A DNA stretch of 64,000 nt from Clostridia bacterium (GCA_045637805.1 JAZUAE010000021.1:1638-65637), one strand, 5' to 3'; shown: positions 25,060-40,348, numbered from the stretch's first letter. Notes: a model not told the origin generated them from the letters alone. Made by a program: numbers and translations.

Positions 25060-25136
25060 GGGGGTATAGCTCAGCTGGCTAGAGCACCTGCCTTGCAAGC
25101 AGGGGGTCACCGGTTCGAATCCGGTTATCTCCACCA
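25060..25136 (+). tRNA. tRNA-Ala (anticodon TGC)
   Basis: Cloverleaf GGGGGTA/TATCTCC with G3:U70, anticodon arm CCTGC-CTTGCAA-GCAGG, TTCGAAT loop, encoded CCA. Confidence 0.97.
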
Positions 25137-25223: not shown

Positions 25224-25300
25224 AGGACTGTAGCTCAGTTGGTTAGAGCACCACCCTGATAAGGTGGGGGTCGGTGGTCCGAGTCCACTCAGTCCTACCA
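25224..25300 (+). tRNA. tRNA-Ile (anticodon GAT)
   Basis: AGGACTG/CAGTCCT acceptor stem, CCACC-CTGATAA-GGTGG anticodon arm, T-loop TCCGAGT, encoded CCA. Confidence 0.95.
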
Positions 25301-25335
25301 TAATAAAAATAACGAACCCGTGCGGTTCGTTTTTT
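25291..25335 (+). repeat. R0: tRNA-Ile 3' end plus hairpin type A (tRNA terminator)
   Basis: AGTCCTACCATAATAAAAATAACGAACCCGTGCGGTTCGTTTTTT. Confidence 0.9.
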
Positions 25336-25414
25336 AATGATGATATTTATGGCAAGTATTAGTAAAATAAAAAAGTTACCAATATTATACATAAAAAAAG
25401 AGGTCGTTTGACCT

Positions 25415-26098
25415 CTATATTTTTTCTAAATTTAATACTGGTTTTGCTGAAATATCTCCGTATGAGTTTTCCTTTTTATAACTCCCCGAATCTTTGTCAT
25501 AGGAATATACTGCTGGAAATCTATAAAATCCAGAAACTTGTTCATCGAATTCAAAGAAAAGGGTATTAATGTCAAGTGAAGGTGTAATTAACATTTCGCC
25601 CATTTGAAGTGCGGTTTTGTATTGTTTTGCATATGCATATGCAGATATTAAATCTTGAGAACTCCAAGTGTTTGAGTGTTCAATTTTTTGACGTATTGGA
25701 TGTGTATGTCCTAAAAATATAATAGGTTTTCCGAAACTTTTAAATTTTAAAGCAATAGTCGCAAATTCGTCAAGTTTATTAAGTGTTTCATTTTTATCTC
25801 TAAAATCAATTCCCTCAGTTGGAGAATTTGTTTGTGTAAATGGAGAGCATGTTTCAATACATATTTGACCATCTTCTCTTTCATAGCCTATTAAAATAAA
25901 ACCAATTTCTACCTGTCTCGCAGTGTTATTATTGTCAACTACAGCTTGTTTTAACGAGTTAAAATTATTTATTGCTCTTTTGCCAATCACAACATTATAT
26001 TTTGAATTTAAACAAGGCAAATTTTTTGCATTTGAAATATATGAGTCGGTCGAGAGGTTTTGTTTTTGCATTATTTCAATTATATTCATAAATTTCAT
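25415..26098 (-). CDS. JAB/MPN-like (JAMM motif) protein, cassette 1
   Basis: E(IGFILIG)...GHTHP...WSSQD resembles E-HxH-SxxD; own TTGCAA-17-TATAAT promoter. Confidence 0.55.
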   Translation of the reverse strand: MKFMNIIEIMQKQNLSTDSYISNAKNLPCLNSKYNVVIGKRAINNFNSLKQAVVDNNNTARQVEIGFILIGYEREDGQICIETCSPFTQTNSPTEGIDFRDKNETLNKLDEFATIALKFKSFGKPIIFLGHTHPIRQKIEHSNTWSSQDLISAYAYAKQYKTALQMGEMLITPSLDINTLFFEFDEQVSGFYRFPAVYSYDKDSGSYKKENSYGDISAKPVLNLEKI

Positions 26099-26153
26099 CT
26101 CCGAATTAAATTATATATTATAAAATCATAATTTGCAACAGATAAAATTAATA

Positions 26154-26223
26154 ATTTCGCATTAGAGATAATACGTTCTACCATAATAATTGTAAAACGA
26201 ATCACGAAAGTGGTTCGTTTTTT
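26154..26223 (+). repeat. R1: arm X + core + hairpin type B
   Basis: CGCATTAGAGATAATACGTTCTACCATAATAATTGTAAAACGAATCACGAAAGTGGTTCGTTTTTT; 32 bp identical to R6. Confidence 0.9.
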
Positions 26224-26225
26224 AA

Positions 26226-26347
26226 TTATTATCATAGTCCTGTGTGTTAGTACCACCAACCCCCAACCGTGCAAGGGGCATAATTTGTTTACAAATTTGC
26301 CCCTGCACCGAAGGTTGCCAAACTTGTTTTTGCATACGGTAGGGTGA
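26226..26347. repeat. Degenerate inverted tRNA-Ile 3'-half copy plus GC-rich hairpin element (copy 1)
   Basis: TTATTATCATAGTCCTGTGTG..ACCACCAACCCCCA resembles the reverse complement of tRNA-Ile; GTGCAAGGGGCA...TGCCCCTGCAC stem. Confidence 0.7.
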
Positions 26348-26396
26348 TAAAACGAAACACCGTTTTAGACTTTTTTTATGAAAAGTTATAAAAACA

Positions 26397-26462
26397 AGAT
26401 AAAACTTGTTGACTTTTCAACAAGTTTTATCTATACTATATCTTGTTGAAAAATCAACAAGA
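26397..26462 (+). promoter_or_regulatory. Promoter with two palindromic operators (CTTGTTGA-N4-TCAACAAG), probably MarR autoregulation
   Basis: 16-bp-arm inverted repeat 26397-26432 over -35 TTGACT; second copy 26441-26462 downstream of -10 TATACT (17-bp spacing). Confidence 0.75.
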
Positions 26463-26470
26463 GGTGGCTT

Positions 26471-26938
26471 ATGGATGAAAGATTTAGAACTTTTACGGTT
26501 CTTATAACAAAATTATATCGATCAATTAGAAAAATAAAAAGTGCAGAAACTGAAGAATATGGTTTGACAAATTCACATGTATCATGTCTGTATTATATTT
26601 ACAAAGAAGAAGCTTTAACTCTTACAGAATTAGTAGATATTTGTTTGGAAGATAAGGCGGTGTTATCAAAAGCTATTATGTTTTTAGAGTCAAATAATTT
26701 AGTTGTTTGTGATTCAAATCAAAAAAAGAGATATAATAATTATTTTAGACTTACGGAAAAAGGCTTAGATATAGCTAAAGGGATTGCTTTTAAGATAGAT
26801 AAAATTTTAGACTATGCGAGTTCTGAAATTGATAATTCGGATAGGGAAGTTTTGTATAAATCTTTGTCATCAATTAGTGATAAATTAGATAAATTTTGTG
26901 AAAATATGGAGGAAAATAAAAAATGGCTGTACAAATAG
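26471..26938 (+). CDS. MarR family regulator, cassette 2
   Basis: YGLT..H..CLYYI, LTLTELVDIC.EDKAVLSKAI..LE, RLTEKG. Confidence 0.85.
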   Translation: MDERFRTFTVLITKLYRSIRKIKSAETEEYGLTNSHVSCLYYIYKEEALTLTELVDICLEDKAVLSKAIMFLESNNLVVCDSNQKKRYNNYFRLTEKGLDIAKGIAFKIDKILDYASSEIDNSDREVLYKSLSSISDKLDKFCENMEENKKWLYK

Positions 26939-27771
26939 TTGTAGATTCGTCAAGTGATATTAATAGTGAGGAGGCTAAAAAATTAGGTGTTACTATGTTG
27001 CCAATATCTATTACTTTTGGCGAAGAGGAGTTTATGGATGGAGTTGATATAAACCATGAACAATTTTATGATAAGTTGTCTCAGTGTGATGAGTTGCCTA
27101 AAACGAGTATGATTAATGCATATAGATTTGAGGAAACTTTTGATAAAATTGTAAGCAATGAAGATGACATTGTTGCTATAATTTTATCATCAGAGTTGTC
27201 GGGAACATGTAATGCAGCAAAAAATGCAGCTGAAAAATATAAAGACAGAGTTTTTGTTGTTGATTCATTAAATGCTAGTGCAGGAATAAAAATTTTAGTT
27301 GAATATGCACTTCAGTTAAAACAAGAAGGAAAAAGTGCAAAAGAAATTTATGATATTTTAGAAGAAAAGAAGAAAAATATTCAAGTTCTTGCAATGGTAG
27401 ACACTTTGAAATATTTAAAAAAAGGTGGGCGCGTGTCTCCAATGTTGGCTTTTGCTGGAGAACTTATGGGAATAAAACCTATGGCTGCAGTTGTTGATGG
27501 AAAAGTAGAAGTTATAGGTAAAGTTATTGGATTAAAAAAGGCAATAAAGTATATTAATAATGAGATAGAAAAAGTGGGTGGTATTGACTTTAATATGCCA
27601 TTTTATACTCTTTATTCTGGTAATGATCAGACAAAAATTAATAATTATATTATTAATAATGAATGTTTATGGGAATGTGGTGTGGAGAATGTTAGAAAAA
27701 ATTGCATTGGTGCAACAATAGGAACACATGTTGGTCATGGTGCAATTGGTATTGCATTCTTTTCAAAATAG
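26923..27771 (+). CDS. DegV family fatty-acid-binding protein, cassette 2
   Basis: VDSSSD, LPKTS, LSSELSGT, VDS, LKYLKKGGR, IGTHVG.GAIG. Confidence 0.92.
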   Translation: MAVQIVVDSSSDINSEEAKKLGVTMLPISITFGEEEFMDGVDINHEQFYDKLSQCDELPKTSMINAYRFEETFDKIVSNEDDIVAIILSSELSGTCNAAKNAAEKYKDRVFVVDSLNASAGIKILVEYALQLKQEGKSAKEIYDILEEKKKNIQVLAMVDTLKYLKKGGRVSPMLAFAGELMGIKPMAAVVDGKVEVIGKVIGLKKAIKYINNEIEKVGGIDFNMPFYTLYSGNDQTKINNYIINNECLWECGVENVRKNCIGATIGTHVGHGAIGIAFFSK

Positions 27772-27811
27772 ATTAATATATTTTACAACAGTAATATAAT
27801 AGTTATTGTTA

Positions 27812-27877
27812 ATTCCGCATTAGAATGATTGCGTTCTACCATAATAAAAATAACGAACCCGTGCGGTTCGTTTTTTT
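27812..27877 (+). repeat. R2: arm Y + core + hairpin type A
   Basis: 27836-27876 is a 41-bp exact copy of 25295-25335. Confidence 0.92.
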
Positions 27878-28048
27878 ATTATTCTAGTACTGATTGAACA
27901 CGCACACCGACCCCCACACATGTTGCAGGGAAGCATAATGCGAAGCATTTGCCCCTGCAACATTGACAACCGAAAGGTTGGCAAATAAGGTGGGGTCGTA
28001 TTGAGGTGCACCGAAGGTTGCGGGTCTGTTTTGACATAAGGTGGGTGG
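27873..28048. repeat. Degenerate inverted tRNA-Ile 3'-half copy plus multi-hairpin element (copy 2)
   Basis: TTTTTATTATTCTAGTACTGATTGAACACGCACACCGACCCCCAC aligns to the reverse complement of the tRNA-Ile 3' half; ATGTTGCAGGG...CCCTGCAACAT and CAACC-GAAA-GGTTG stems; forward ATAAGGTGGGGTCG. Confidence 0.8.
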
Positions 28049-28112
28049 TTGATTCTTCATTGCATTTTACTTGTTTTATTACATTAAAAAAGCAAGTTGT
28101 TTTACGACTTGC

Positions 28113-28379
28113 CTACTTACCATCCCAATCTTCTGGCCTACGCCAATGGCCATATTTTTCAAAAAACAAATCTTGTTTTTTCATTATTTCATCAACTTCT
28201 TCGTTGGTGTATTTTTTTTGTTGTGGGTTATAACCAACTGCTTCCATATTCCACTCATCTAATCGCCACCTTATATCCAAAGTAGGTGCTTTTAATTTCT
28301 TATAGTCTGGATAATTAGTTTTTAATTTTTCAAAAGTGTATGGCAATAAATTTTTCCACCAAGGGTCATCATAATACAT
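28113..28379 (-). CDS. Hypothetical protein (88 aa), cassette 3
   Basis: GGAGA RBS and TTGACA-18-TAATAT promoter upstream; no family recognised. Confidence 0.6.
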   Translation of the reverse strand: MYYDDPWWKNLLPYTFEKLKTNYPDYKKLKAPTLDIRWRLDEWNMEAVGYNPQQKKYTNEEVDEIMKKQDLFFEKYGHWRRPEDWDGK

Positions 28380-28496
28380 ATTATTTTCTCCATTTAATAC
28401 ATATTACATCGCCCTCTTCAAATTTGTCAAATTCTTTAAATTTGAAATTTCTTCCTATTAAAAATTGAAATTCAACATCTTTATAGTTGGAGCAAT

Positions 28497-28535
28497 ATAA
28501 TTGTAAAACGAATTACAAAACAGATTCGTTTTTTT
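28497..28535 (+). repeat. R3: degenerate type-B hairpin repeat lacking the core
   Basis: ATAATTGTAAAACGAAT identical to R1, then ...TTCGTTTTTTT. Confidence 0.7.
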
Positions 28536-29124
28536 ACTTACATAAATCATAATATCCATCAACGAGGGATAAGTTTTCATCAGCCATCAATATAGAAAGT
28601 CCTTTCTTTTTACGATATTTAGTCCATCCGTAATGGGTTCTATAAATTAGTTTATATAAGTCTACATATTTATGTATTTCCATTTCTTGAACTTCTTTAT
28701 TGTTTAAAATCATAAAGAATTTATAACTATAAATTTCATCGATTGATTCATAAGATAGTATTTTTCTATCAATAAGATCGCATAATGTACGAACCCATGT
28801 TAAATAATTTAAAACATCTGCAGGCATTGTTTTTAAACTGGTGTATTTTTCTTTAGAATATTTTTTATCTAATTCATTTAAAACTTTAGTATTACTTTCT
28901 TGTTCGTAAAATGATTGATAGAATTCAACAATAAAAGATGCTTCATTGATTTGTTTGTCTTTTTTAAATTGAATCCATAATGCAACAGCACCAATGATTG
29001 CTGTAACTGTAGTTACAATTGTAGAAATGGTGTTTGAGTATTCTGTTAAAAAAGAACCGATAATAACACCTAAAACTATTAGTGCTGTACTTATAATCAA
29101 AATTATGTTAGAATTTTTTCTCAT
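28534..29124 (-). CDS. Hypothetical membrane protein (two N-terminal TM helices), cassette 4
   Basis: Hydrophobic N-terminus followed by a helical soluble domain; AGGAG RBS. Confidence 0.7.
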   Translation of the reverse strand: MRKNSNIILIISTALIVLGVIIGSFLTEYSNTISTIVTTVTAIIGAVALWIQFKKDKQINEASFIVEFYQSFYEQESNTKVLNELDKKYSKEKYTSLKTMPADVLNYLTWVRTLCDLIDRKILSYESIDEIYSYKFFMILNNKEVQEMEIHKYVDLYKLIYRTHYGWTKYRKKKGLSILMADENLSLVDGYYDLCK

Positions 29125-29216
29125 GTGTTTTCTCCTTTAAATGAAGTATATGGTTGATGCATATAAAAAGTCAAACAAATAGTTAGAGTTTGTAAAAATA
29201 TTATAAATATTAAAAG

Positions 29217-29282
29217 TCTTGCATTAGAGTGATTGCGTTCTACCATAAAAAAGATAATGAACCCGTGTGGTTCGTTTTTTTT
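29217..29282 (+). repeat. R4: arm Y + core + hairpin type A
   Basis: GCATTAGAGTGATTGCGTTCTACCATAAAAAAGATAATGAACCCGTGTGGTTCGTTTTTT. Confidence 0.88.
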
Positions 29283-29384
29283 ATTTTAATTTATTTCTTA
29301 ATTAAACATTTTTAACTATGTGTGTTGATTGTTTTTGATTGATTGCGTTTTATAATGATGGTATCTTATAAAGGAGGAAAATAT

Positions 29385-29741
29385 ATGAACACAGATAAGA
29401 TTTATGCAGAGCAAATTGCAAGCGAATATGCAGAAAAGGGGACTTCAAAGGTTAAAGCATTAAAGAGGCTTGATGCAAAAGCTAAAAACCCAGCTCATAT
29501 TTTTGCTTATACTTTTGGTATTATTTGTAGTTTAATGCTTGGTACAGGTATGAGCTTAGCAATGGGCGTTATTGGCGGAGGATCTATCCTTATGATGGCA
29601 ATTGGTATTATTGTTGGTTGCATTGGTATTTTTGGTGTAAGTATTAATTATTATTTATATAGAAAAATACTAGAAAATGGCAAAAAGAAATATGCAAATG
29701 ATATAATAGAACTTGCAAAACAAATTACATATGAGGAATAG
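29385..29741 (+). CDS. Small two-TM membrane protein, cassette 5
   Basis: LK.LD.KAK.PA.IFAY.FGI...L.LG.GMSLAM pattern; AGGAGG RBS. Confidence 0.75.
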   Translation: MNTDKIYAEQIASEYAEKGTSKVKALKRLDAKAKNPAHIFAYTFGIICSLMLGTGMSLAMGVIGGGSILMMAIGIIVGCIGIFGVSINYYLYRKILENGKKKYANDIIELAKQITYEE

Positions 29742-29743
29742 TT

Positions 29744-30307
29744 ATGAATAAGGCGGAAAGTAAATATTTTAACACTGCAAGGTTAATGAATACAGCATTA
29801 ATATATCTATTAGAAAAGAGAGAATTGGATAAAATAACGGTTAAAGAAATTTGTGAAAAAGCGGGAGTGAACAGGTCTACATTTTATTTACATTATGAAT
29901 CCATAGCAGATTTATTGGTTGAAACGGTGGAAAATTTGGGTAAAGATTTTAAAAATCAATTTTTGCAGACTTCAATATTAAAAAGTAATGATAAACCACA
30001 AATGTTGTTAACTGAGGAATATTTAATTCCATATTTGAACTTTGTAAAAGACAATAGGCGCATTTTAAAAACGATTCATTCTAGACCAGAAATTTTTGAT
30101 GTTGAACAAACTTACGAAAAAATGTGTTTTCAAATATTTTATCCCGCAATAAATATGTTTAATATTGACGATTCCGAAAAACCTTATATCCTTGAGTATT
30201 ATACAAAAGGTATTGTCGCAATTATTAATAAATGGATTTCAAACAACTGTGAAGATCCTATCGAGCTGATTATTAAAATAATTTATGATTGTGTTAAAAT
30301 TCCGTAA
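29744..30307 (+). CDS. TetR/AcrR family regulator, cassette 5
   Basis: ITVKEICEKAGVNRSTFYLHY HTH. Confidence 0.9.
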   Translation: MNKAESKYFNTARLMNTALIYLLEKRELDKITVKEICEKAGVNRSTFYLHYESIADLLVETVENLGKDFKNQFLQTSILKSNDKPQMLLTEEYLIPYLNFVKDNRRILKTIHSRPEIFDVEQTYEKMCFQIFYPAINMFNIDDSEKPYILEYYTKGIVAIINKWISNNCEDPIELIIKIIYDCVKIP

Positions 30308-30316
30308 TATGGTGAC

Positions 30317-30366
30317 CTCAGTCCTAACATAAATTTATAAACGAATCACGAAAGTGGTTCGTTTTT
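30317..30366 (+). repeat. R5: tRNA-type arm + core variant + hairpin type B
   Basis: CTCAGTCCTAACATAA is 15/16 identical to the tRNA-Ile 3' end (25288-25303), then AAACGAATCACGAAAGTGGTTCGTTTTT. Confidence 0.85.
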
Positions 30367-30417
30367 CTTTGTAGAAATTATGTTATTGTGATACAATTTA
30401 TTTAGGAGATAACATTT

Positions 30418-30852
30418 ATGGACAAGTTAGTTGATGTTAAAAATTATATAATTGCAAGAGAGCCTGTTTTTCATCATAGAGAATTTACAAATTCGAGAGA
30501 AGATGTGGAAAGAGAGACAACTGATGATTATTTTGAAATTAGTGCAAGTGGGTGTGATTACTCTCGTGAGTTTGTTTTAGATTATCTTGAAAAAAGATAC
30601 AAAGAAGAACCTGAAGATGATATGATAAAAGATGGCTGGAAGGTTAAAAACTTTAAAATTAGAAAGCTTGCTGACGAATTATACTTAGTAAATTACACTC
30701 TTCATGGACAAGGTAGAGTAACCAAGCGTGGTGAAATCTGGAAGGGAAACCTTACTGATGGAATCAAAATTATGTATCATCAAGGAACGGTTGTTGTTCC
30801 TGAAAGAATTAGCGAACACAAAAATTTGTTAAAAACATTAAATAAAAAATAA
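30418..30852 (+). CDS. NTF2-like (DUF4440-type) protein, cassette 6
   Basis: REPVFH..E, DYFEISASG..YSRE, YLVNYTL.QGRVT.R..IW, YHQGT. Confidence 0.7.
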   Translation: MDKLVDVKNYIIAREPVFHHREFTNSREDVERETTDDYFEISASGCDYSREFVLDYLEKRYKEEPEDDMIKDGWKVKNFKIRKLADELYLVNYTLHGQGRVTKRGEIWKGNLTDGIKIMYHQGTVVVPERISEHKNLLKTLNKK

Positions 30853-30854
30853 TC

Positions 30855-30918
30855 TTTCCGCATTAGAGATAATACGTTCTACCATAATAAAAAAACGAAC
30901 CCGTGTGGTTCGTTTTTT
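30855..30918 (+). repeat. R6: arm X + core + hairpin type A
   Basis: 30859-30890 identical to 26158-26189, then AACGAACCCGTGTGGTTCGTTTTTT. Confidence 0.9.
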
Positions 30919-30980
30919 ATTTGACATAATTTGCATGATTATAATAAAATATTTATAGCGTACAAAAAGGAGGGGTATAT

Positions 30981-31547
30981 ATGAAAAAGTTTTTTGCTAA
31001 AAAATGGACACTAATAGGTTTTGTTATTGCATCTGCAATATTTCTTGGTGGACTGCTTGCAATGCTTTTAAGTCCAGTCTTCTATGTTGGAGCTTATAGT
31101 GGTGGTGAGGGTGATGATAATTATAGTTATAAATACTATATTCATTTCAAGTCATGTAATAAGTATGAAGTAACACGAGAAGCTAAATTAATTTCAAATG
31201 GAACAACCACAACAACAGTGACTGAATATTGGTACTATAGACAAGGTGATGTTGTCATTTCTATAGACAAAACAGAAGATATGACAAAAGAACAGTACGA
31301 TAAAACTGTAAAAGAAATTAAAGATTTAAGTGAAGAAGAATTTGAGGTTTTAGTTAAAACACGCGGATCAAAAATTAATTTGCGCTACATGGAAATAAAG
31401 ACACTTACAAGTAGTGTAAAATATAGTAACAAGTCTAGTATAACATTCCTTGTAATTGATTCAATTCTATTAGGTCTTGCACTTACTGGTACAGGATTGT
31501 CAATATTTTATTATGTTAAAGCAAAAAAGAAAAAATCTAAAAACTAA
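30981..31547 (+). CDS. Hypothetical membrane protein (N- and C-terminal TM helices), cassette 7
   Basis: Two hydrophobic segments flanking a soluble domain; AGGAGG RBS. Confidence 0.7.
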   Translation: MKKFFAKKWTLIGFVIASAIFLGGLLAMLLSPVFYVGAYSGGEGDDNYSYKYYIHFKSCNKYEVTREAKLISNGTTTTTVTEYWYYRQGDVVISIDKTEDMTKEQYDKTVKEIKDLSEEEFEVLVKTRGSKINLRYMEIKTLTSSVKYSNKSSITFLVIDSILLGLALTGTGLSIFYYVKAKKKKSKN

Positions 31548-31559
31548 ATAGTAATAGAT

Positions 31560-31589
31560 AAAATCGAACCCGTGTGGTTCGTTTTTTTT
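31560..31589 (+). repeat. R7: type-A hairpin without core (array end; also a terminator between convergent genes)
   Basis: CGAACCCGTGTGGTTCGTTTTTTTT. Confidence 0.8.
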
Positions 31590-31593
31590 GTAA

Positions 31594-32514
31594 TCATTTT
31601 TTATATTCTGTTTTGTAATTTCTTTTTACGAATATGTTAATATGGCGGGGAATAACCTCAAAATTAAATGAACCACTAAAACCATATTCACCATCTAAAT
31701 TTACTATATTTTTATCATCAAGTTTCACTTGGAATTTGTTAAGTTCTAAAACAATACAATTCTTAGAATTTTTAATAGTTTTTATACCAAAAACAAAAGA
31801 TTTAAAAATATTAAATAAAGATCTTATTGATATTCCTTTTTTACTGTTTTCCTTAAATAAAATTACGTTTACATTTCCATCTGTACAATCGGCTTTATTG
31901 TTGATTTTATAGCCGCTGACATATTTACTATTAGCTATAATACCTAAGATTATATTATCACTTAAAATTTCGTTATCATATTTAAGTGTGATAGGGAATT
32001 TATTAACTTTACCAAGGTCTTTTACACCGTTTATGTAATATGCGAGTTTGCCAAAAGCTTGTTTTGCTTTTTGAGAAGCTCTATAACTCGAGCCTGTAAA
32101 AACTCCAAATGCGCAAACATAAATTCCATATTTATTTCCTGCCTTAAAAATGTCATGTAAAATTGTATGTTCATCAAGTATGATTTTTACAGCCTTTTTT
32201 ACATTTGAAGGTATTTTTAATGAATGTGCAAGATCATTTGTTGTACCTGTTGGTATATAGCCGATTTTTGGCCTATTTTCATTGTTTGCAATACCTGAGA
32301 TTATTTCGTTCATAGTTCCATCTCCACCAGAAACAATGATTGTGTCGTAAATTCCACAAGCCTCATTAGCAAAATCGCGGGCATCGCCACGCTTTTCTGT
32401 TCTTTTTACATCAACGGTGTCATATTTTGATTTTAAAGAAGATATTATAAATTCTTTCGTGTTTTTTGAGACACCTTTTCCACTTACAGGATTATAAATG
32501 TATAAACACTTCAT
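31594..32514 (-). CDS. Diacylglycerol/lipid kinase family (YegS/DagK-like)
   Basis: IYNPVSGKG, SGGDGTMNE, IPTGTTNDLA, NLDGE. Confidence 0.9.
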   Translation of the reverse strand: MKCLYIYNPVSGKGVSKNTKEFIISSLKSKYDTVDVKRTEKRGDARDFANEACGIYDTIIVSGGDGTMNEIISGIANNENRPKIGYIPTGTTNDLAHSLKIPSNVKKAVKIILDEHTILHDIFKAGNKYGIYVCAFGVFTGSSYRASQKAKQAFGKLAYYINGVKDLGKVNKFPITLKYDNEILSDNIILGIIANSKYVSGYKINNKADCTDGNVNVILFKENSKKGISIRSLFNIFKSFVFGIKTIKNSKNCIVLELNKFQVKLDDKNIVNLDGEYGFSGSFNFEVIPRHINIFVKRNYKTEYKK

Positions 32515-32650
32515 ATTTTCAGTGTACCATTTTATTATATCGAAATCAAGTATTTAAAATTAAATGAAAATTTAAAATAAACATAAATATATTTAAAATC
32601 ATAAACTATATTGATGGCATAAGTCATCAAAATTACAAAGGAGGCAAAAA

Positions 32651-33508
32651 ATGGAAACAATTTCAAATCAAGCCCATGTATCTTTTACGTACGATGGCAA
32701 TGATGTTGTTAAAACAAATGATTCTAATATTGTAAATTCTTCAATTAAAGATAAATACAGTATTTTAGTCGAAAAATCATCAACAACAGAGTGTTTTAGA
32801 GCAGGTGAAATTATCAACTATATGGTTCGTGTTACAAATACAGGTTGTGGTTGTTTAAGTAATTTTACTATCATCGACAACCTTGGAGGTGCAGACTATT
32901 TAACCTTTGTTGAAGGTAGCGCTAGATTATTTGTAAATGGAACAATGCGTGAAATTACACCGTCTAACCTATCACCATTATCATTTACTATTGCGGACAG
33001 GTTAGAAAGAGACGCCGAACTTATTTTGCAATATAATGCCCTTGTAGATGCAAATATTAGTGCTGATATTTCTGAGATCACCAATCGTGTAGATGTAAAG
33101 GGATATGCATGTGGTTGTGGCTGTGAAAGAGGCCGTGACTGTGTTGAAGGCTCAGCAGAATATACTATTTCTAGGTGTCTTTTTGCTGAAGTGTTAATTA
33201 CAAAAGCAATTTCAAACGACAATGTTTGCTGCGGTGAAGAATTAGATTATATTATAACACTTACAAATATTGGCAATATTGATGCAACAAATGTAATTGT
33301 TACTGATACTCTTCCTGAATCGTTTAATACAACGGAAATACACATGGAAAATAATGGCAATCATTATCAATTTGATGCAAGCGAATACACAATTGATGCG
33401 TCTAACTTGTTGACACTTCCAAATGAAACTGGAACCGCTATACTTGTTCCTGCACTTGGACCAGGTGTTGATAACACAACAAGAATTCGTATTCATGGAC
33501 ACATGTAA
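32651..33508 (+). CDS. DUF11 (conserved repeat domain) Cys-rich protein
   Basis: Two K.....GE...Y.(V/I)...N.G......V.D.L units; CGCGC clusters. Confidence 0.7.
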   Translation: METISNQAHVSFTYDGNDVVKTNDSNIVNSSIKDKYSILVEKSSTTECFRAGEIINYMVRVTNTGCGCLSNFTIIDNLGGADYLTFVEGSARLFVNGTMREITPSNLSPLSFTIADRLERDAELILQYNALVDANISADISEITNRVDVKGYACGCGCERGRDCVEGSAEYTISRCLFAEVLITKAISNDNVCCGEELDYIITLTNIGNIDATNVIVTDTLPESFNTTEIHMENNGNHYQFDASEYTIDASNLLTLPNETGTAILVPALGPGVDNTTRIRIHGHM

Positions 33509-33643
33509 CAAAAGAAGAGTCAATCAAGCGATTGACTCTTTTTTGTTACTTGTATGAAATTTTTATTTAAAAGTTTAAAATTATTAGGTAAATTTAACTG
33601 TTGAGTGATATAATTAATGAGAAAAAACAAAGGAGATAAAAAA

Positions 33644-34048
33644 ATGATAGATAATGGTATTGAATTGAATTTAGAAAGCGGTGAACCTCATTTTGAAAAC
33701 GATACAATGGTTGCGGTTAAGTCTAATAATTTAAAAAATAACACATTAATCGGATCCTATGTTATTATTCCAAAATCTGAAGTGGGGTCGCCATTCGAGT
33801 TGTCCGATAAAGAGTGGACAGATTGTAAATCTTTAATGATTGAAGTAAAGGAATATTTAGATAAAAAATATGCACCAGATGGCTATAATGTTGGCTGGAA
33901 TGTCGGGGAAGTGGCTGGTCAGCACGTTGCTCATGCGCATCTCCACATTATTCCAAGATATGCTGATGAGCTCTATGCTGGAAAAGGACTTCGTCATTGG
34001 TTTAAACAACCGGAAAACATGAGAGCATCATTAAAGGATAAAAAATAA
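33644..34048 (+). CDS. HIT family hydrolase
   Basis: PDGYNVGWNVGEVAGQHVAHAHLHIIPRY. Confidence 0.9.
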   Translation: MIDNGIELNLESGEPHFENDTMVAVKSNNLKNNTLIGSYVIIPKSEVGSPFELSDKEWTDCKSLMIEVKEYLDKKYAPDGYNVGWNVGEVAGQHVAHAHLHIIPRYADELYAGKGLRHWFKQPENMRASLKDKK

Positions 34049-34081
34049 ATTAATAAAAAACGAGCCTCGTAGGCTCGTTTT

Positions 34082-34690
34082 TTAATTAAATTCTGGAAAT
34101 GGGTCACTAACATTTGGCTGCATTCTACTTTCACATATTTTTGTATAAGATTCATAAACGCGCGTTGTGTCATTTTTATCTACTGCGCAAATAAAATTAC
34201 ATAAATGATCTAAACTTTCTACAACATGATTCACAATATTTGGTGCACAAATGTCCTCATTGCCATAAAAGGTATCGGTATCCCACTCAAGAGGTTCGTT
34301 TAGCTCAAAATTAAAGTATTTAAGCGTAGCGTGTATTGTTATTTCTGAAATATAAAACAAGTGTTCAATCATTGTCATGCGCTGATCTAGGGTTTTAGCA
34401 AAATGATAATGTAAAAAATAAACGGCATACCATTGCTGACATTCGTTTAAAAATGCCATTTGAGTAGAATATTCCTTTGATCCAGTTATATTAAGAAGAT
34501 TGTTTTGGTAAGTTATACGATTTTCTTTTATTTGGTCGTAATATTTGTTTACATATGGCAAAAATTTCAGATTATCAATATCGTGGTTTAAAGATTTCAT
34601 CATAGAATTTATTTTTTTAACGTTTTCTTTGTTGTGTTTTACTATATCTGAAAAATTTAAAGAGTGTTGGCTAAAAATATCGTTTTTCAT
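34082..34690 (-). CDS. Hypothetical protein
   Basis: 202-aa ORF with TTGACA-18-TATATT promoter directly upstream. Confidence 0.6.
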   Translation of the reverse strand: MKNDIFSQHSLNFSDIVKHNKENVKKINSMMKSLNHDIDNLKFLPYVNKYYDQIKENRITYQNNLLNITGSKEYSTQMAFLNECQQWYAVYFLHYHFAKTLDQRMTMIEHLFYISEITIHATLKYFNFELNEPLEWDTDTFYGNEDICAPNIVNHVVESLDHLCNFICAVDKNDTTRVYESYTKICESRMQPNVSDPFPEFN

Positions 34691-34846
34691 AAATAAGAAT
34701 ATAACACTTTTAAGCCTGTTTTGTCAATAGAGGATTGCTGCAAAGTTTAAAAAGTTGAATAAGGTTTATGCCCAAATTTCTTATAGTGACATCTTGAATT
34801 TTACAAAATTGTATTATATAATATATATAAGTAGAGGAAATTTAGT

Positions 34847-36427
34847 ATGATAGAGAAAAAACTTAGAGCGGAAAGTTTGTTAACGTCTAACATTAGTGAA
34901 GAACTTGCTTCAGTTAAGATAGATGCACTTGGTTTGCCTAATAAAATGCTCGATAAATTGAAGTCTTTTGAGGTGTATAATTTAAACACTGGTAAGACTC
35001 AATTATTTAAAAATATTGGCGATTTAATGAAAATGGGCAGAAATGGGTTAATGGTTCAACTGGGACAAAGAAATATTAGATATTCAGAGGCTGACGAAAT
35101 CATTGTTACGATTGAAAATAAACTTGCTAAAATAGGCTTAAAATTTGAGGATTCAGACTTTACCGTACTCGACGTGAAAATTAGTGAGCTAGAAGTGTCT
35201 GGGAAGGCTCACGAACTTTTAACTCGTCTTCCAAATCATATTCGCAATTTGTTAGATTTGTCTATTCAAAATAAGGCAAAACTAAGACATAAAGTTGTGG
35301 AAAATGGACAAGGTATAGTCAGCGAGATTGAAAGAGCTATGGAAAAATATGGAATGAGGTTTGTTGAGTCTAGTTTTAAATTAGACAAAAATAATTTTTT
35401 TCCAACAGAATGGATATTCAGAAAAAATGCCTCAATAGTAAATGAAGAAAGAAAAAAAGATATAAATAATGTTCAAGTAAGATTGTCCGAAAATAAATTT
35501 GCAAAAAAAGATATAAATGCCATTGATAAAAAGTGTGTTTCAGAATTACGTGCAATAGGTTTAAGCGACAAAAATATTGTTTATTTAGTAAATAAGATAG
35601 GTGTGAATAGTGTAGATGATTTAAAAAACAAAACTTATAATGAATTATGTTTTGCTTTAAATCAAAACATATCTGCTATTGGTAAGATAAGAAAGTATTT
35701 AAGAAACCAAGGAATTGAATTGAATAGGGTTTATATTAGAAAAAGGAAACAAGAAATTGTAGAATTTGATATAGAAAACATGAGTGAGGAAGAAAAGCAA
35801 AAGTTTAAAGATTCAAGTGTTGACGTTTTGGGACTTCCTGCAAGTGCAACAAAAAAACTAAAAGATGAATATGGAATTTTAAAGATTGATGATCTACAGA
35901 AAATTTCAAGGGAACAGCTCGATACTTTTAAATATAACTTAAGATCTCATGATCAACTTAAGAAGACGATACGAAGACTTTTTCCATACAAGAGTGACAT
36001 TTGTCTGATTATGAGAAAAAAAGATAAAGAAAAGTTCGTTAAATACAATCTTGAAAATATTCATAAGTTTGACAAAAATGAAGTGCTAAATGCTCCACTT
36101 TGTGCATTTGGTGTTACACTTCACACTCAAAAATTTTTAAAAAACAGAATGGGAATAGAAAAATTGTCAGACTTTACAGGAAAAACTTATACAGATATAG
36201 CTATGGCTTTGAATAACAACTTAAATCAAGCTGCTCTAATTTCTAAAATGTTAAAAGCGATAGATCTACCTCTTGCGCGATCTAAAAAAATTGACGACAA
36301 CGAAAACTTGGACGATTTTGTTTTTGAATCAAGTAATGGAGAACAAGTTGAAAATAACGGTAATGATTTTGTAAGAAAAAATTGCAAAAAATCAAGAAAA
36401 GAATTTGATGCGGACGAAATGATATAA
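34847..36427 (+). CDS. Protein of about five tandem RNA polymerase alpha-CTD-like (HhH) repeats
   Basis: Repeats such as IDALGLP..MLDKL...IGDL, ISELEVS.KA..LL...I..LLDL, IGLSDK....L...GVNSVDDL, VDVLGLP..A.KKL...GI..IDDL. Confidence 0.6.
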   Translation: MIEKKLRAESLLTSNISEELASVKIDALGLPNKMLDKLKSFEVYNLNTGKTQLFKNIGDLMKMGRNGLMVQLGQRNIRYSEADEIIVTIENKLAKIGLKFEDSDFTVLDVKISELEVSGKAHELLTRLPNHIRNLLDLSIQNKAKLRHKVVENGQGIVSEIERAMEKYGMRFVESSFKLDKNNFFPTEWIFRKNASIVNEERKKDINNVQVRLSENKFAKKDINAIDKKCVSELRAIGLSDKNIVYLVNKIGVNSVDDLKNKTYNELCFALNQNISAIGKIRKYLRNQGIELNRVYIRKRKQEIVEFDIENMSEEEKQKFKDSSVDVLGLPASATKKLKDEYGILKIDDLQKISREQLDTFKYNLRSHDQLKKTIRRLFPYKSDICLIMRKKDKEKFVKYNLENIHKFDKNEVLNAPLCAFGVTLHTQKFLKNRMGIEKLSDFTGKTYTDIAMALNNNLNQAALISKMLKAIDLPLARSKKIDDNENLDDFVFESSNGEQVENNGNDFVRKNCKKSRKEFDADEMI

Positions 36428-36497
36428 TAGCTTTATATTTCTTTGAATTATTAGCTTTTTAGTGTATAATTTATGTATAAATATTTTGAGGTGTTTT

Positions 36498-37184
36498 ATG
36501 AGTAGAATGTATAATTTGTATGATAATAAAATCAGAGAGGAACTTTTGAACATGCCTATCAAGGCTTTGGGATTACCTTTAGAAGTTGAAAAGGTTTTAT
36601 CTTCTGTTTGTGAGATGGGTGTTTATGGAATTGAAAAGAATACTATTAAAACGGTTGGCGATTTATTAGAAAAGGGAAAGAGCAGAATTGAAAATGTTCT
36701 TTCAAGAAATGTATATTATCAAAAATACCCGAATATTATTAGAGATATAGAAGAAAAACTGATGAGGTTTGGTTTTAAATTTGAAGATTCGGATTTTTCA
36801 GCATTAGATGTTAGAGTTAAAGAATTAGATGTATCTGATAAAACAAAACAATTTTTAGATAAAATTTCTCATAACACTAAAACTATTGGTGATTTAAGTA
36901 TAAAAAGAATTAGATCTTTAACTGTTCGCATACTTGATGATGATTATAGTGTGCTCCTTGATTTGAAAAATGCAATGCAGGAATATGGTGTAAAATTTGA
37001 AGATGCATCATACGAGTTGGATAAAACAAAATTTTTCCCGTTAAAAGATAAAGTATTTTTCTTAAGCAATAAAACTATTAATGAATATTTAAAAAATTAT
37101 AAAAGACCAAGAAAATTTCAGAAATCAAAAGAAATTTTCCAAAGAGAATTTAAAAAACAATCAGTAGAAAATGAAGCAATATAA
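36498..37184 (+). CDS. Shorter paralogue with two alpha-CTD-like repeats
   Basis: Clear similarity to the N-half of the upstream gene (IKALGLP, VGDLL, IEEKL..G.KFEDSDF..LDV...EL.VS.K, AM.EYG..F..S..LDK..FFP). Confidence 0.6.
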   Translation: MSRMYNLYDNKIREELLNMPIKALGLPLEVEKVLSSVCEMGVYGIEKNTIKTVGDLLEKGKSRIENVLSRNVYYQKYPNIIRDIEEKLMRFGFKFEDSDFSALDVRVKELDVSDKTKQFLDKISHNTKTIGDLSIKRIRSLTVRILDDDYSVLLDLKNAMQEYGVKFEDASYELDKTKFFPLKDKVFFLSNKTINEYLKNYKRPRKFQKSKEIFQREFKKQSVENEAI

Positions 37185-37288
37185 AAGGGGTTGCATAATG
37201 CAATCTCTTTTTTGTTTTTACATATGTTTTTTTATTTGCTTATATAAGAAAAATGCTGTATTATATAACTGTAACGTGGAGGAAAAAT

Positions 37289-37609
37289 ATGAAAGTTTTA
37301 CAATTTTTATTATCTGATAATTTTGATACAATGTTTGAAAACACTGCTAATAACGTAAGCACTTTTTCGACAATTATGTTTGTTCTTTCTGGAATTGTCA
37401 CTGTGGCAATAGTGGTATTCATAATTTGTGTTGTGATTAAATCAACGAGGAAAATGAAGGATATAACAGGCGGTGTAATGGGGGAGATTAAGGAAAATAT
37501 TGAAGATAATTCTAACCCAAATATTACATGTGAATACTGCGGATCTGTAAACAAGAAAGAAAATTCTACTTGTAAACAGTGTGGTGCATCACTTAATCAT
37601 AAAAAATAG
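37289..37609 (+). CDS. Membrane-anchored zinc-ribbon protein
   Basis: One TM helix; C-terminal CEYCG...CKQCGA. Confidence 0.7.
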   Translation: MKVLQFLLSDNFDTMFENTANNVSTFSTIMFVLSGIVTVAIVVFIICVVIKSTRKMKDITGGVMGEIKENIEDNSNPNITCEYCGSVNKKENSTCKQCGASLNHKK

Positions 37610-37736
37610 ACAATAAAACGAGCTTTTGGTTTAAAGCTCGTTTTTTTTTGTTTTTAATTAACATTTAATATAATTCATTTGATTTTTATTTTTAAATACT
37701 TTATATTTAAAATACTAAAGATAAGGAGAGAAATCT

Positions 37737-38045
37737 ATGAGTAAGGAAGAAAACAAGAAGTTTTTTGATGGTATAGGCATGTTTGCTGCTGTTATCACAA
37801 TTATTACATATTTAGTACTTGCAATTAATGCTCAATGGCCATTCATTAATAATGGAACTATAATGAACATTCTTTTAGTTATAAAAGTTTATGCTCCTCT
37901 TGTAGTTGTTGCAATTACTGGACTTGAGTGGGTGTCTGGAAGAAGTTTCTTCGTTAAAATTATTTTCTATGCAGCTATGGCTTTAGTTGTTATTTCAATG
38001 TTTTTCCCATCAACATGGACACAGTTTGTGGGATTAATAGGTTAA
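37737..38045 (+). CDS. Small three-TM membrane protein
   Basis: Hydrophobic ORF with AGGAG RBS and downstream terminator. Confidence 0.7.
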   Translation: MSKEENKKFFDGIGMFAAVITIITYLVLAINAQWPFINNGTIMNILLVIKVYAPLVVVAITGLEWVSGRSFFVKIIFYAAMALVVISMFFPSTWTQFVGLIG

Positions 38046-38079
38046 TAGCAAACAAAAAAGACGCAATCGCGTCTTTTTT

Positions 38080-38925
38080 TTATTTCTCAAAAAATGCCAT
38101 TCCAACTGCGCCTGGCCCTATATGTGTACCGATTGTGCAGCCAAGGCTGTATGATTTTATTTCTTCGTTAGATTGATTTAAAATTTCAGGGATTGTTTTT
38201 ATATATTCTTCTAATCCAGTGTTTGTAGCGGAATATACAAAACAAAGTGGCATAGAATAGTCAATTCCTTTTGTTTGGTTTATCATTTGGGTTAACATAA
38301 GATGTTTTTTCTTTGTTCCCATAGCTTTACCTACAACTTTAACTTCGCCATCTATTACTTGAATCAATGGTTTTATAGATAGTATTGTTCCGATTGTTGC
38401 ACTTGCTGCGGAAATTCTACCGCCTTTTTTTAGATATTCAAGAGTGTCGATTGCAGCTATTATTTTTAATCTAGTCTTAGCATCGTCTAATATTGTTTTA
38501 ATGGTTTTTGCCGGTAAGTTTTGTTTAGCGAGCTCTAAAGCATAAAGACCAAGTAGTCTTTCGCCTATAGTTGCGCTCAAGCTATCTACTACAAAAACTT
38601 TTCCATCAAACTTTTCAGCAGCACTTACTGCGTTTTTATAAGTGCCAGAAAGTTTAGAAGATAGGGTAATCATTACAACATCTGAGCCGTCTGAGGTTGC
38701 TTTTTTAAATTCTTCTTCAAATCTAAATGGATTAATTTGACTGGTTTGAGGCAGCCCTGTGCTATTCTTTAGTCTATTATAAAATTCATTATGAGTGATA
38801 TTGACACCATCAAGGTATTCCTCAGTGCCAAATCTAATTTCAATAGGAATAAAACCAAGTCCAAGTTCTTTAGCTTCGTTTACAGTAATATCTGATGCTG
38901 AGTCGATAATGATTTTAACCGCCAT
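38080..38925 (-). CDS. DegV family fatty-acid-binding protein
   Basis: IDSASD, LPQTSQ, LSSKLSGT, LEYLKKGGRI, IGTHIGPGAVG; ATG 38925 behind AGGAG. Confidence 0.92.
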   Translation of the reverse strand: MAVKIIIDSASDITVNEAKELGLGFIPIEIRFGTEEYLDGVNITHNEFYNRLKNSTGLPQTSQINPFRFEEEFKKATSDGSDVVMITLSSKLSGTYKNAVSAAEKFDGKVFVVDSLSATIGERLLGLYALELAKQNLPAKTIKTILDDAKTRLKIIAAIDTLEYLKKGGRISAASATIGTILSIKPLIQVIDGEVKVVGKAMGTKKKHLMLTQMINQTKGIDYSMPLCFVYSATNTGLEEYIKTIPEILNQSNEEIKSYSLGCTIGTHIGPGAVGMAFFEK

Positions 38926-39038
38926 AAGTTCTCCTAAGTGTGTTTTATATGCGTAGTATAACACAATGTTATATACATTGTAAAACAAAAGATTGTTTAA
39001 AATTCTCGCGAATTAAGAAAAGGCAAAAAACCTTGCCT

Positions 39039-40262
39039 TTATAATTCATAACCATTCTCTTCTAAGAGAGCTCTTGCGCTTTCAACCGAGTCAACTCCAG
39101 TTTTGTTTTTTATAGGTGCAAACTCTTTACTGCGCACTACCTCATAAGGTAGGCAAGAGTTGCAAAGTTCTATCATATCTACACAAAGCATTTCAAATTT
39201 GTGTGCGTTTGGTGAACTAGGTGATTGAAGATTGCCGTCTTTATCTATATATGGGACTTTTTTATGAACAACGTGAACTGGCAATGCTTCGTCTTTTATT
39301 TTATGTAATTGTTCTACGTTAAACAAATAGTTTAGTATAACGCCAAAATTATACACACGTTCGCCTTCACTGTTGGTCTCTTGAGCCATATCGTCGGTTA
39401 GGTCTATATATTCTATAATTGATGGCTTGCCATTTTTATTACACATTACACCAACTTTTTCATAAGGGTCAGCTTTTCGTATAACCTTTGCACCAACCTC
39501 ATATCCGCCTGAAAGTGTTGCACCGATAAAAGCAGGGTCTGCTATTTTCTGTAGTACATTGTCTACAGCAAATACATTTAACCACTTTATGTTAAAATAT
39601 TCGAGCATTTGTTTTGCATCATCGTTTTTAAGTAGGGAATTAAACCAACCGCCGTTGCCGTTTGGGCTTGTAGCTAATCGGTTTTTTTCTTCGAGCAAAA
39701 TTTTACCATTTTCGTCAACGCAAGGAGCCATATCTTGAACAAAGAATCTAATATATCTTTCGTCGTAACCAAAATAATCATGTTCTTTTAAAAAGTTTAT
39801 AGTTGCCTCATTATTCTTTTCACTTGTCATAATGAAAAATGGAACAGGCTTTCCGCATTTTCTGGATACTTCTATAAGGTTTTCAAATAGTCTTTGGAAA
39901 ATATAGACATCACGAGTTTTTCCGATATTATACATTCCTTTTGGCGCATCAGACCCAAGTCTTGTACCCATACCGCCAGCAAGAAGCAAAGCACCAACTT
40001 CATAATTTTGCAATGCCTTGTTGCCAACTTTTTCAAAGTCTTGTTTGTATTCATCAATCTCAGGCACTTTTAATGCGTCGATAGGTGTTATTTTAGAATC
40101 TTGTTTTGTTTCGTTTGCGTTTAAGTGCGATAGGTAATCAAAGTCTGTTTCAAGGATTTGTGTGTATAATTCCTCTTTTTCTTTGTTATCCAAATCGTTT
40201 TCAAATTGCAATAAATGTTCTTGATTATATTTTTTTAATTTTGCTATTACCTTATTTCTCAT
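39039..40262 (-). CDS. UDPGP-family pyrophosphorylase (UDP-GlcNAc pyrophosphorylase-like)
   Basis: LLAGGMGTRLG...PKG, IMTS, SPNGNGG, VDN, EKVG, KFE, EFAPIKN. Confidence 0.85.
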   Translation of the reverse strand: MRNKVIAKLKKYNQEHLLQFENDLDNKEKEELYTQILETDFDYLSHLNANETKQDSKITPIDALKVPEIDEYKQDFEKVGNKALQNYEVGALLLAGGMGTRLGSDAPKGMYNIGKTRDVYIFQRLFENLIEVSRKCGKPVPFFIMTSEKNNEATINFLKEHDYFGYDERYIRFFVQDMAPCVDENGKILLEEKNRLATSPNGNGGWFNSLLKNDDAKQMLEYFNIKWLNVFAVDNVLQKIADPAFIGATLSGGYEVGAKVIRKADPYEKVGVMCNKNGKPSIIEYIDLTDDMAQETNSEGERVYNFGVILNYLFNVEQLHKIKDEALPVHVVHKKVPYIDKDGNLQSPSSPNAHKFEMLCVDMIELCNSCLPYEVVRSKEFAPIKNKTGVDSVESARALLEENGYEL

Positions 40263-40348
40263 AATTACTCCTTTTATTTTATTAAATTGTAAAAAAATAT
40301 ACGTTAATGTAGTAAAAAATGTGACCAACAATTTGGTTGGTCACTATT

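Follow-up and report, generated by a model that had tools for sequence, protein, structure and literature searches.

Cis-mobilizable elements (CIMEs) are units flanked by attachment (att) sites that carry no recombination genes and are mobilized by a helper element sharing the att site. According to the report on tycheposons, these elements integrate successively at one tRNA gene and leave partial tRNA copies between them, and typical att sites are given there as tRNA-derived repeats of approximately 40 nucleotides (nt) (10.1101/2020.12.28.424599). Here, we describe an array of short gene cassettes, separated by repeated junctions (R0 to R7), that lies directly behind a tRNA-Ile(GAT) gene in a Clostridia bacterium, a gut bacterium with a small genome (1.1 Mb). 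The DNA analyzed, hereafter the window, comprises 64,000 nt (positions 1638-65637 of contig C21 of G000, an assembly of 1.10 Mb in 29 contigs that is 96.5% complete), and coordinates are counted from its first letter. The array is characterized by the composite anatomy of its junctions, by their confinement to this locus, by the variability of the locus among relatives and by cassette neighborhoods that differ in other samples. Its closest working parallel would be the accretion of integrase-less units at a tRNA att site, and our preferred explanation, to which we give a probability of roughly 0.55, is that a recombinase acting in trans added cassettes without an integrase to the 3′ end of tRNA-Ile(GAT), and that the resulting array was later reshuffled.

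Anatomy of the junctions behind tRNA-Ile(GAT)

A complete junction spans approximately 90 nt and consists, from left to right, of an arm (19-45 nt), a common core of 9-12 nt, an A-rich spacer, a terminator-type hairpin and a T run. The tRNA gene and the junctions are as follows, all on the plus strand.

25224 to 25300, +: tRNA-Ile(GAT) with encoded CCA (ARAGORN; Rfam tRNA, 68 bits); the same tRNA is present in the congener G011
25288 to 25337, +: junction R0, with the tRNA end CTCAGTC, core (25295-25303), spacer, hairpin A with loop CGTGC (25311-25331) and T run
26145 to 26225, +: junction R1, with arm X (26159-26177, GCATTAGAGATAATACGTT; likeness continues upstream), core (26178-26186) and hairpin B (26196-26219, GAAA loop)
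27793 to 27879, +: junction R2, with arm Y (27817-27835), core (27836-27844) and hairpin A (27852-27872)
28486 to 28534, +: junction R3, with a decayed core (GTTGGAGCAATA) and a decayed hairpin B, 80% identical to R1 over 49 nt
29197 to 29284, +: junction R4, with arm Y (29221-29239, G variant), core (29240-29248) and hairpin A with loop CGTGT (29256-29276)
30297 to 30368, +: junction R5, with CCTCAGTC, a mutated core (30324-30332) and hairpin B (30340-30363)
30845 to 30920, +: junction R6, the last full one, with arm X (30860-30878), core (30879-30887) and hairpin A with loop CGTGT (30894-30914)

A further copy, R7 (31563-31583), consists of hairpin A alone, without arm or core.

The core CTACCATAA comprises the final 6 nt of tRNA-Ile(GAT) (CTACCA) followed by TAA. 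Its exact plus-strand copies start at 25295 (R0), 26178 (R1), 27836 (R2), 29240 (R4) and 30879 (R6), that is, five times within 5.6 kb, in addition to one mutated copy at R5 (CTAACATAA at 30324, one mismatch to CTACCATAA) and the decayed copy at R3. The units are flanked in this manner by direct repeats of the tRNA 3′ end, with five exact cores and one mutated core containing CTACCA; R5 reproduces 15 of 16 nt of the tRNA end, and tRNA-Ile itself is still intact. The last 6 nt of tRNA-Ile(GAT), which make up the left part of the core, may act as an attB-like anchor.

The core region reads GTTCTACCATAA, with a palindrome formed by spacer, hairpin and T run to its right, and since the spacer pairs with the T run as well, this palindrome reaches approximately 42 nt. 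To the left of the core, the arm has shared ends, GCATTAGA and CGTT, which enclose a 7-nt middle reading GATAATA in arm X (R1 and R6) and (A/G)TGATTG in arm Y (R2 and R4). Within each arm class, the likeness extends a further 15-25 nt or so upstream; the two copies of arm X are identical over 31 nt, core included, and the two copies of arm Y show one difference. Hairpins A and B have the base of the stem in common (AACGAA/TTCGTT) and differ only at the top, hairpin A having an 8-bp stem with the loop CGTG(C/T) and hairpin B a 10-bp stem with a GAAA loop. The most extended identity on the right side was found between R0 and R2, which share 41 nt (core, spacer, hairpin and T run) before they diverge.

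Taken by itself, the 9-mer CTACCATAA is unremarkable, with 24 matches in the window at no more than one mismatch against 16.5 expected (24 was reached in 5 of 100 shuffles) and 21 exact copies on both strands of the whole genome. The extended junction, by comparison, lies far above chance: five matches to the hairpin pattern were found against 0.00 expected, and five to hairpin A against 0.01. A simple scan called the junction hairpins terminator-like, with 16 such sites between 25 and 32 kb against 2.3 expected. As shown by the 31 nt identity between R1 and R6, the 41 nt identity between R0 and R2 and these hairpin counts (5 against 0.00-0.01), the junctions are homologous and not convergent.

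Assortment of the left and right halves

A preliminary description of this DNA, made from the sequence alone, had sorted the left sides of the junctions into three classes and the right hairpins into two. Both groupings were borne out, with arm X at R1 and R6, arm Y at R2 and R4 and the tRNA-type CTCAGTC at R0 and R5 on the left, and hairpin A at R0, R2, R4, R6 and R7 and hairpin B at R1, R5 and, decayed, at R3 on the right. One assignment has to be qualified: the arm of R5 appears to be a hybrid rather than purely tRNA-type, because the sequence upstream of CCTCAGTC resembles the X and Y arms (AATTCCG.A.TA...TGA). The combinations named in that description were likewise recovered, namely CTCAGTC with A at R0, X with B at R1, Y with A at R2 and R4, CTCAGTC with B at R5 and X with A at R6. 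The order A-B-A-B-A-B-A-A had also been given correctly; the perfect alternation corresponds to one of the 35 possible orderings of four A and three B, a post hoc figure that counts R3 and omits R7. When the hairpin and the arm at the two ends of each cassette are paired instead, the result is a mosaic (A-X, B-Y, A-Y, A-CTCAGTC and B-X).

The same description had proposed strand exchange within the core as the source of this pattern. In support of this, arm X and CTCAGTC each occur with both hairpins, and the only stretch common to all junctions is GT.CTACCATAA(T/A)AA; for these two reasons, exchange in or at the core would be the simplest route to the junctions observed. The sample amounts to six full junctions, too few to show statistical independence of the left and right halves.

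Confinement of the junctions and occupancy of the locus in a congener

A stretch of 5.7 kb contains all of the full junctions, which share one orientation; the remainder of the 1.10 Mb genome has none. All four genomic copies of the arm plus core pattern are inside the array, as are all six full-length matches to a sequence-only junction model, and the hairpin pattern was matched in the array only (five matches on the plus strand and one minus-strand reading of the R6 palindrome). Beyond this genome, the arm pattern GCATTAGA-N7-CGTTCTACCATAA at no more than two mismatches gave no match in 200 other genomes of the family and none in Joint Genome Institute (JGI) metagenome contigs. The sequence-only model recovered no full junction in 60 other genomes of the family (58 genera); 21 of them had partial matches restricted to spacer, hairpin and T run (best, 25 bits), which correspond to generic terminator look-alikes. 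Hairpin A followed by TTTT was absent from a collection of genomes from 185,579 species, in which G000 itself may not be included. Matches to CGTTCTACCATAAWAA at 39 loci in viral contigs were attributed to chance, the hairpin pattern following at none of the 39 loci screened.

In the congener G011, the order MarR, tRNA-Ala, tRNA-Ile is kept at 72% identity, and the homology stops at query position 904, equivalent to window position 25303, the last base of the core, right after CCA. Beyond tRNA-Ile, G011 has a different terminator and approximately 10 kb of other genes, and synteny returns at window positions 40349-41326. Because homology ends after the core and resumes there, the 15 kb from 25.3 to 40.3 kb are a variable island at tRNA-Ile. 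Its GC content is mostly 25-31% between 25.4 and 38 kb, compared to 32-38% in the flanks. When the DNA behind tRNA-Ile in G011 and G004 was scanned for repeats, an array of this kind was not found; sampling of the genus covers two species, with G011 as the one congener compared.

These data bear on the view that the junction of approximately 90 nt is a small mobile repeat, similar to miniature inverted-repeat transposable elements (MITEs) or repetitive extragenic palindromes (REPs), that inserted between pre-existing genes. Its compact size, palindromic part and intergenic position would agree with such a repeat. A dispersed repeat of this type was nevertheless rejected given the four of four arm plus core copies and six of six full-length model matches in the array, with all copies in one orientation within 5.7 kb of a 1.1 Mb genome; moreover, the genes supposed to pre-exist between the junctions were absent from the 13.4 kb of G011 that were inspected at this locus. 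We find this view scarcely credible.

Cassettes and their neighborhoods in other samples

Between the junctions lie five or six cassettes of 0.55-1.65 kb with one or two genes each. They are listed here with the segment behind R6; ORF denotes an open reading frame, and lengths of products are in amino acids (aa).

25304 to 26177, +: cassette 1, with hairpin A, ORF 25415-26098 (minus strand, 227 aa), own terminator 25399-25416 and arm X
26187 to 27835, +: cassette 2, with hairpin B, GC-rich element, palindrome 26397-26432, MarR-like gene 26471-26938, DegV gene 26923-27771 and arm Y
27845 to 28485, +: cassette 3a, with hairpin A, second GC-rich element 27876-28109 and ORF 28113-28379 (minus strand, 88 aa, no family)
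28535 to 29239, +: cassette 3b, with ORF 28534-29124 (minus strand, 196 aa) and arm Y
29249 to 30323, +: cassette 4, with ORF 29343-29741 (132 aa), TetR-family regulator gene 29744-30307 and a hybrid arm (arm-like 5′ part plus CCTCAGTC)
30333 to 30878, +: cassette 5, with hairpin B, ORF 30418-30852 (144 aa, no family) and arm X
30921 to 31591, +: segment behind R6, with a promoter-like site 30921-30950 (11/12) and ORF 30981-31547 (188 aa, no family), followed by R7

The cargo between the junctions is mutually unrelated and is found in both orientations, with three of the nine cargo ORFs between R0 and R7 on the minus strand. Simple tandem duplication, which the preliminary description had already considered a poor fit, is therefore excluded.

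We also examined three sequencing runs from animal gut or faeces, taken from three studies (X1 to X3), of which each held 5-6% of the words searched, and from which no claim on habitat or strain is drawn; the comparison covered assembled contigs at a likeness of at least 85%. The contigs contain the same short units at 85-99% identity next to other neighbors, and cassette 1 is kept at approximately 97-98% identity in X1, X2 and X3. In X2, cassette 1 is followed by R1 and the GC-rich element, as in the window. The most informative contig was X3 record 19, which holds cassette 1 in one piece (25306-26189; hairpin A, cargo, arm X and core) with 23 differences and two gaps in 884 nt. On its left it is preceded by arm X and core of another cassette instead of the tRNA, through a joint between 26187 and 25306 at which 34 nt fit and 2 nt fit either side, which places the break no more than 2 nt from the core; the next 1.1 kb on that side have no match in the window, and 18 nt to the right of the cassette do not align to it either. 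This arrangement is what the cassette model predicts, with both ends traveling with the cargo and the break at the core. Accordingly, the earlier proposal that hairpin and arm accompany their cargo holds for cassette 1 in X3, although not in X1 (see below).

Other X3 records show further arrangements. In record 21, the GC-rich element of cassette 3a comes next after the tRNA end (to 25300), with a gap of at most approximately 60 nt, computed from the record length. The homologue of cassette 3b in record 22 begins at 28529, at the decayed R3, and the record suggests a tRNA-type end and core in front of it. A joint between 25302 and 26348 has seven other letters in between and only 21 nt that fit on the shorter side, the order being reconstructed from three joints of equal depth.

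The array might also represent full-size integrative elements, such as prophages, integrative and conjugative elements (ICEs) or integrative and mobilizable elements (IMEs), which stood in tandem at tRNA-Ile and lost their integrases and most genes until att scars and a little cargo were left. Elements that accrete in tandem at tRNA genes and then decay are well documented, and R3 and R5 are indeed decayed or mutated. However, four junctions are nearly perfect, and the genes between the junctions are intact open frames. Neither integrase nor phage gene fragments were found between the junctions, where the PHROGs search gave regulator or unknown-function families only, and the same short cassettes recur with other neighbors in three samples. 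Together, this makes a decayed series of large elements unlikely.

A possible route of accretion and the observations that weigh against it

Under the preferred reading, small integrase-less cassettes would have entered the 3′ end of tRNA-Ile(GAT) in succession, and each junction would be a composite att-like site in which the first 6 nt of the core rebuild the tRNA end. A recombinase acting in trans, most likely of the tyrosine type and supplied by a helper element or by a gene at another place in the genome, would exchange strands in the core between a circular cassette (arm-core-hairpin-cargo) and either the tRNA end or any resident junction. Each junction would join the arm of the cassette on the left to the hairpin of the cassette on the right, which would result in a free combination of halves, and later short-tract conversion or recombination between near-identical junctions could account for breaks outside the core. 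This model postulates the recombinase, cassettes that pass through a circular form, and a precise point of crossover.

Candidate genes for such an activity exist in the genome, with five PF00589 genes on contigs C1, C9 (two), C28 and C29 and four PF00239 genes, also on other contigs than C21. The PF00589 products comprise an XerS-like protein (361 aa), three proteins of 468-495 aa and one of 312 aa, which is encoded beside a sigma-factor-like gene. Upstream of the genes for the XerS-like protein and the 312 aa recombinase, the DNA does not resemble the junction, and a helper sharing core, arm or hairpin was not found in the genome. Three other leads were rejected: an exact core copy on C9 that lies 3 kb from a recombinase gene with GATAAT upstream was considered a chance match inside a coding frame, an arm-like match near the C1 recombinase had no core, and an island ORF of 526 aa gave only weak matches in an atlas search (0.86 or lower), to clusters resembling the C-terminal domain of the RNA-polymerase alpha subunit.

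As a separate observation, C9:33200-41146 contains a cluster of two tyrosine recombinase genes (312 and 495 aa) and a sigma-factor-like gene, together with a frame close to the end of the contig that has apparent in-frame TGA codons, an HxH-like motif (FHIHLIIMFE) and an exact CTACCATAA within it. The TGA-bearing frame could be a broken gene or represent a mobile element that uses a different genetic code.

Several observations weigh against the preferred reading. Firstly, no recombinase gene was found in the array or on contig C21 (PF00589 search; Pfam scan of 24 ORFs at 19-40 kb), and no link was detectable between the junction and any of the five PF00589 or four PF00239 genes. No circular or empty-site form was seen in the assembled contigs, and a dyad of binding sites around a spacer of 6-8 nt was not evident by eye in the core. 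Secondly, the hairpin is not specific to the junction, because terminators resembling both hairpins are present at other places in the genome: at C14:96719-96758, behind the end of a gene, TACCATAA is followed by an A run and a hairpin whose top is CCCGTGTGG, and at C12:170965-171003, a terminator with the same CACGAAAGTG top as hairpin B lies behind an apparent tRNA 3′ end (CTCGCACCA; tRNA read by eye). Similarly, hairpin A standing alone at R7 is an ordinary gene terminator.

Thirdly, the linkage of left and right sides also breaks outside the core, so that the part of the initial proposal that confined exchange to the core did not stand. Switch points are located behind the hairpin (R0/R2 compared to R1/R2) and within the R5 arm, and X1 has two more, at 25411 and 26146. 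Record 5 of X1 contains the cassette 1 cargo gene (25411-26146) with 13 differences in 736 nt; behind it come five other letters and a Y-type arm (from 27812), in front of it 504 unmatched nt, and both ends of the cargo therefore appear to have been exchanged outside the core; here, the same gene has a Y-type arm and its hairpin side is replaced. In the window, the hairpins of R1 (B) and R2 (A) differ, yet both are followed by the same type of sequence, including the GC-rich element. Since the hairpins are far more alike than their surroundings, this likeness points to recent homogenization of the junctions or to a second exchange point behind the hairpin.

Such switch points would be expected if a module of tRNA end and terminator had been amplified locally as short dispersed repeats, the mosaic arising by ordinary homologous recombination, gene conversion or template switching without a dedicated recombinase, and the cargo arriving by other routes, for example homology-anchored uptake. 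This alternative would fit with the lack of an identified recombinase. It would also fit with hairpins that are 100% identical next to GC-rich elements of 71% mean column identity, which suggests recent homogenization, and with loop variants that are shared by adjacent hairpins, R0 and R2 having C and R4, R6 and R7 having T. On the other hand, tracts with only 9-41 nt of identity are, as is generally known, short for an exchange of the RecA type, and three features are left unexplained: the arm and tRNA-end copy that close every unit, the homology with G011 that stops exactly at CCA, and the movement of cassette 1 with both ends in X3. On balance, we consider repeat amplification followed by conversion rather unlikely.

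Finally, the assemblies themselves call for caution. The contigs of X1 to X3, presumably built with 31-mers, are de Bruijn assemblies, in which exact repeats of 31-41 nt are the places where misjoins can occur, and single joints should not be over-read; the window, from an assembly of 29 contigs, could suffer repeat misjoins in its cassette order too. It could even be supposed that assembly of a repeat-containing genome from a metagenome produced a false order of units or a part of the array, given the 29 contigs and the presence of repeats of 31-41 nt. Nevertheless, the junction sequences and their flanks are each unique, which makes the sites real whatever their order, and the joint of cassette 1 with R1 was recovered independently in X2 and in X3, so that an artefact of this kind is very improbable. 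In addition, the unmatched flanks in X1 to X3 show that the neighbors do differ.

If the cassettes do move by exchange in the core at the tRNA end, the locus would represent integron-style gene shuffling without an integron, with a tRNA gene as docking site and the recombinase encoded elsewhere, in a 1.1 Mb gut bacterium that has little room for mobile DNA. It would offer a defined site of approximately 90 nt in which arm, core and hairpin are separately testable, and could help to explain how small flexible tRNA-side islands are built in reduced genomes. If it is merely an old insertion scar shuffled by conversion, it would be an ordinary tRNA island.

Cargo, GC-rich elements and the remainder of the island

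The cargo has its own regulators (MarR-like, TetR), promoter-like sites and a terminator. The cassette 1 ORF (227 aa) belongs to no Pfam family and has a weak PADLOC JAB match (E 8e-5); a protein search recovered its own cluster and only two others, at 45-46% identity, and its use as a query for related loci gave 84 pattern matches in metagenome contigs and 67 in genome contigs, with none confirmed in either. In cassette 3b, the product of 196 aa has a weak SLATT match (E 0.0037) below the cut-off. The cassette 4 ORF (132 aa) has no family in Pfam, PHROGs or PADLOC and a membrane character predicted from sequence reading, and the neighboring TetR gene matches phrog_14982 (E 1.5e-25). Distant DNA matches to this gene pair (29343-30307), at 64-80%, were found in plasmid records of large Lachnospiraceae and Clostridium butyricum replicons, which hints at an origin of this cargo in other Bacillota; they were the only matches of the array among plasmid records, and phage records gave none. 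A membrane character is likewise predicted for the product of 188 aa behind R6, whose ORF ends in R7.

Just upstream of the MarR-like gene of cassette 2, positions 26397-26432 form a perfect palindrome with a 16-bp stem, which overlaps a promoter-like site (26409-26437). This palindrome is likely an operator.

Two homologous GC-rich elements (26226-26400 and 27876-28109) stand directly behind the hairpins of R1 and R2, with a mean column identity of 71% and no other copies in the genome. Each has one long near-perfect hairpin and folds better than shuffled sequences on both strands (z -2.6 to -3.3). An alignment fold of the two was uninformative, as their main hairpins were misaligned, and Rfam gave only two tRNAs at the gathering score and nothing at E up to 5 on the elements. 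In other samples, the GC-rich element adjoins an arm without G000 cargo in between at two joints (X1, 26344 to 30844; X3, 27966 to 26154), where other letters may intervene. An extended version of the accretion model, which we put forward tentatively as possible but doubtful, would be a tRNA-anchored, integron-like platform in which a recombinase in trans inserts, excises and reshuffles a pool of minimal cassettes (terminator hairpin, optional GC-rich element, cargo and arm) where tRNA-Ile ends, at its last bases, with the GC-rich element as a cis-acting part of an empty cassette backbone.

The junctions are confined to the first 6.3 kb of the island, and no junction repeats were found in its remainder (31-41.5 kb). 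The tRNA gene upstream of the anchor and the rest of the island are as follows.

25060 to 25136, +: tRNA-Ala(TGC) (ARAGORN; Rfam tRNA, 70.3 bits)
31592 to 40340, no strand assigned: rest of the island, with DAGK-like, DUF11 and HIT genes, five ORFs without a family above the Pfam cut-off, a second DegV gene and UDPGP

The part from 31592 to 40340 was without a counterpart in the 13.4 kb of G011 examined behind tRNA-Ile. DegV is encoded twice in the island, by paralogues at 26923-27771 and 38080-38988, and the stretch from 34082 to 38045 is a series of ORFs for which Pfam gave no family above its cut-off.

Comparison with known systems

With regard to integrons, the array resembles them in its small, mostly single-gene cassettes without a recombinase of their own, in variable sites of 60-100 nt with a short conserved core, and in reshuffling between strains. 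An integron was nonetheless rejected, as there is no intI beside the array or on C21 and no attI, and the anchor is a tRNA end. Unlike integron attC sites, whose consensus is GTTRRRY, the core has GTTCTAC, which does not fit, and the palindrome lies beside the core and does not span it. Furthermore, integron cassettes are mostly promoterless and co-oriented behind the promoter Pc, whereas the cargo of this array is found in both orientations, with its own promoters, regulators and terminators.

The array is also comparable to Xer-dependent modules, such as those bounded by pdif sites and integrative mobile elements exploiting Xer (IMEX), in that integrase-less modules are moved in trans by a host recombinase, and the genome has one XerS-like gene. 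In contrast to pdif modules and IMEX, all sites of the array are direct and not alternately inverted. Compared to dif, which has two inverted arms of about 11 nt around a spacer of 6-8 nt, the junction shows by eye only 4-nt inverted repeats (GTTC/GAAC) 17-18 nt apart.

The likeness is broadest with the tRNA-based systems. Units of 0.55-1.65 kb with one or two genes and no integrase set the array apart from tRNA-targeting ICEs, IMEs and tycheposons, and its tRNA-derived repeat of only 6 nt (15 of 16 nt at R5) differs from typical att sites. Each unit also has a conserved arm and a terminator hairpin, unlike in tRNA accretion systems, and no helper element was found in the genome. As in CIMEs, according to their usual definition, the units are flanked by att-like sites and have no recombination or transfer genes. 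In common with tRNA accretion systems, decayed sites lie further in and occupancy varies among relatives, G011 lacking the array and X1 to X3 having other neighbors. In line with the tycheposon islands of Prochlorococcus and with streptococcal ICE/IME/CIME accretion, as these are reported, the array is anchored at a tRNA 3′ end, would have grown by serial insertions and has a copy of the tRNA end between its units.

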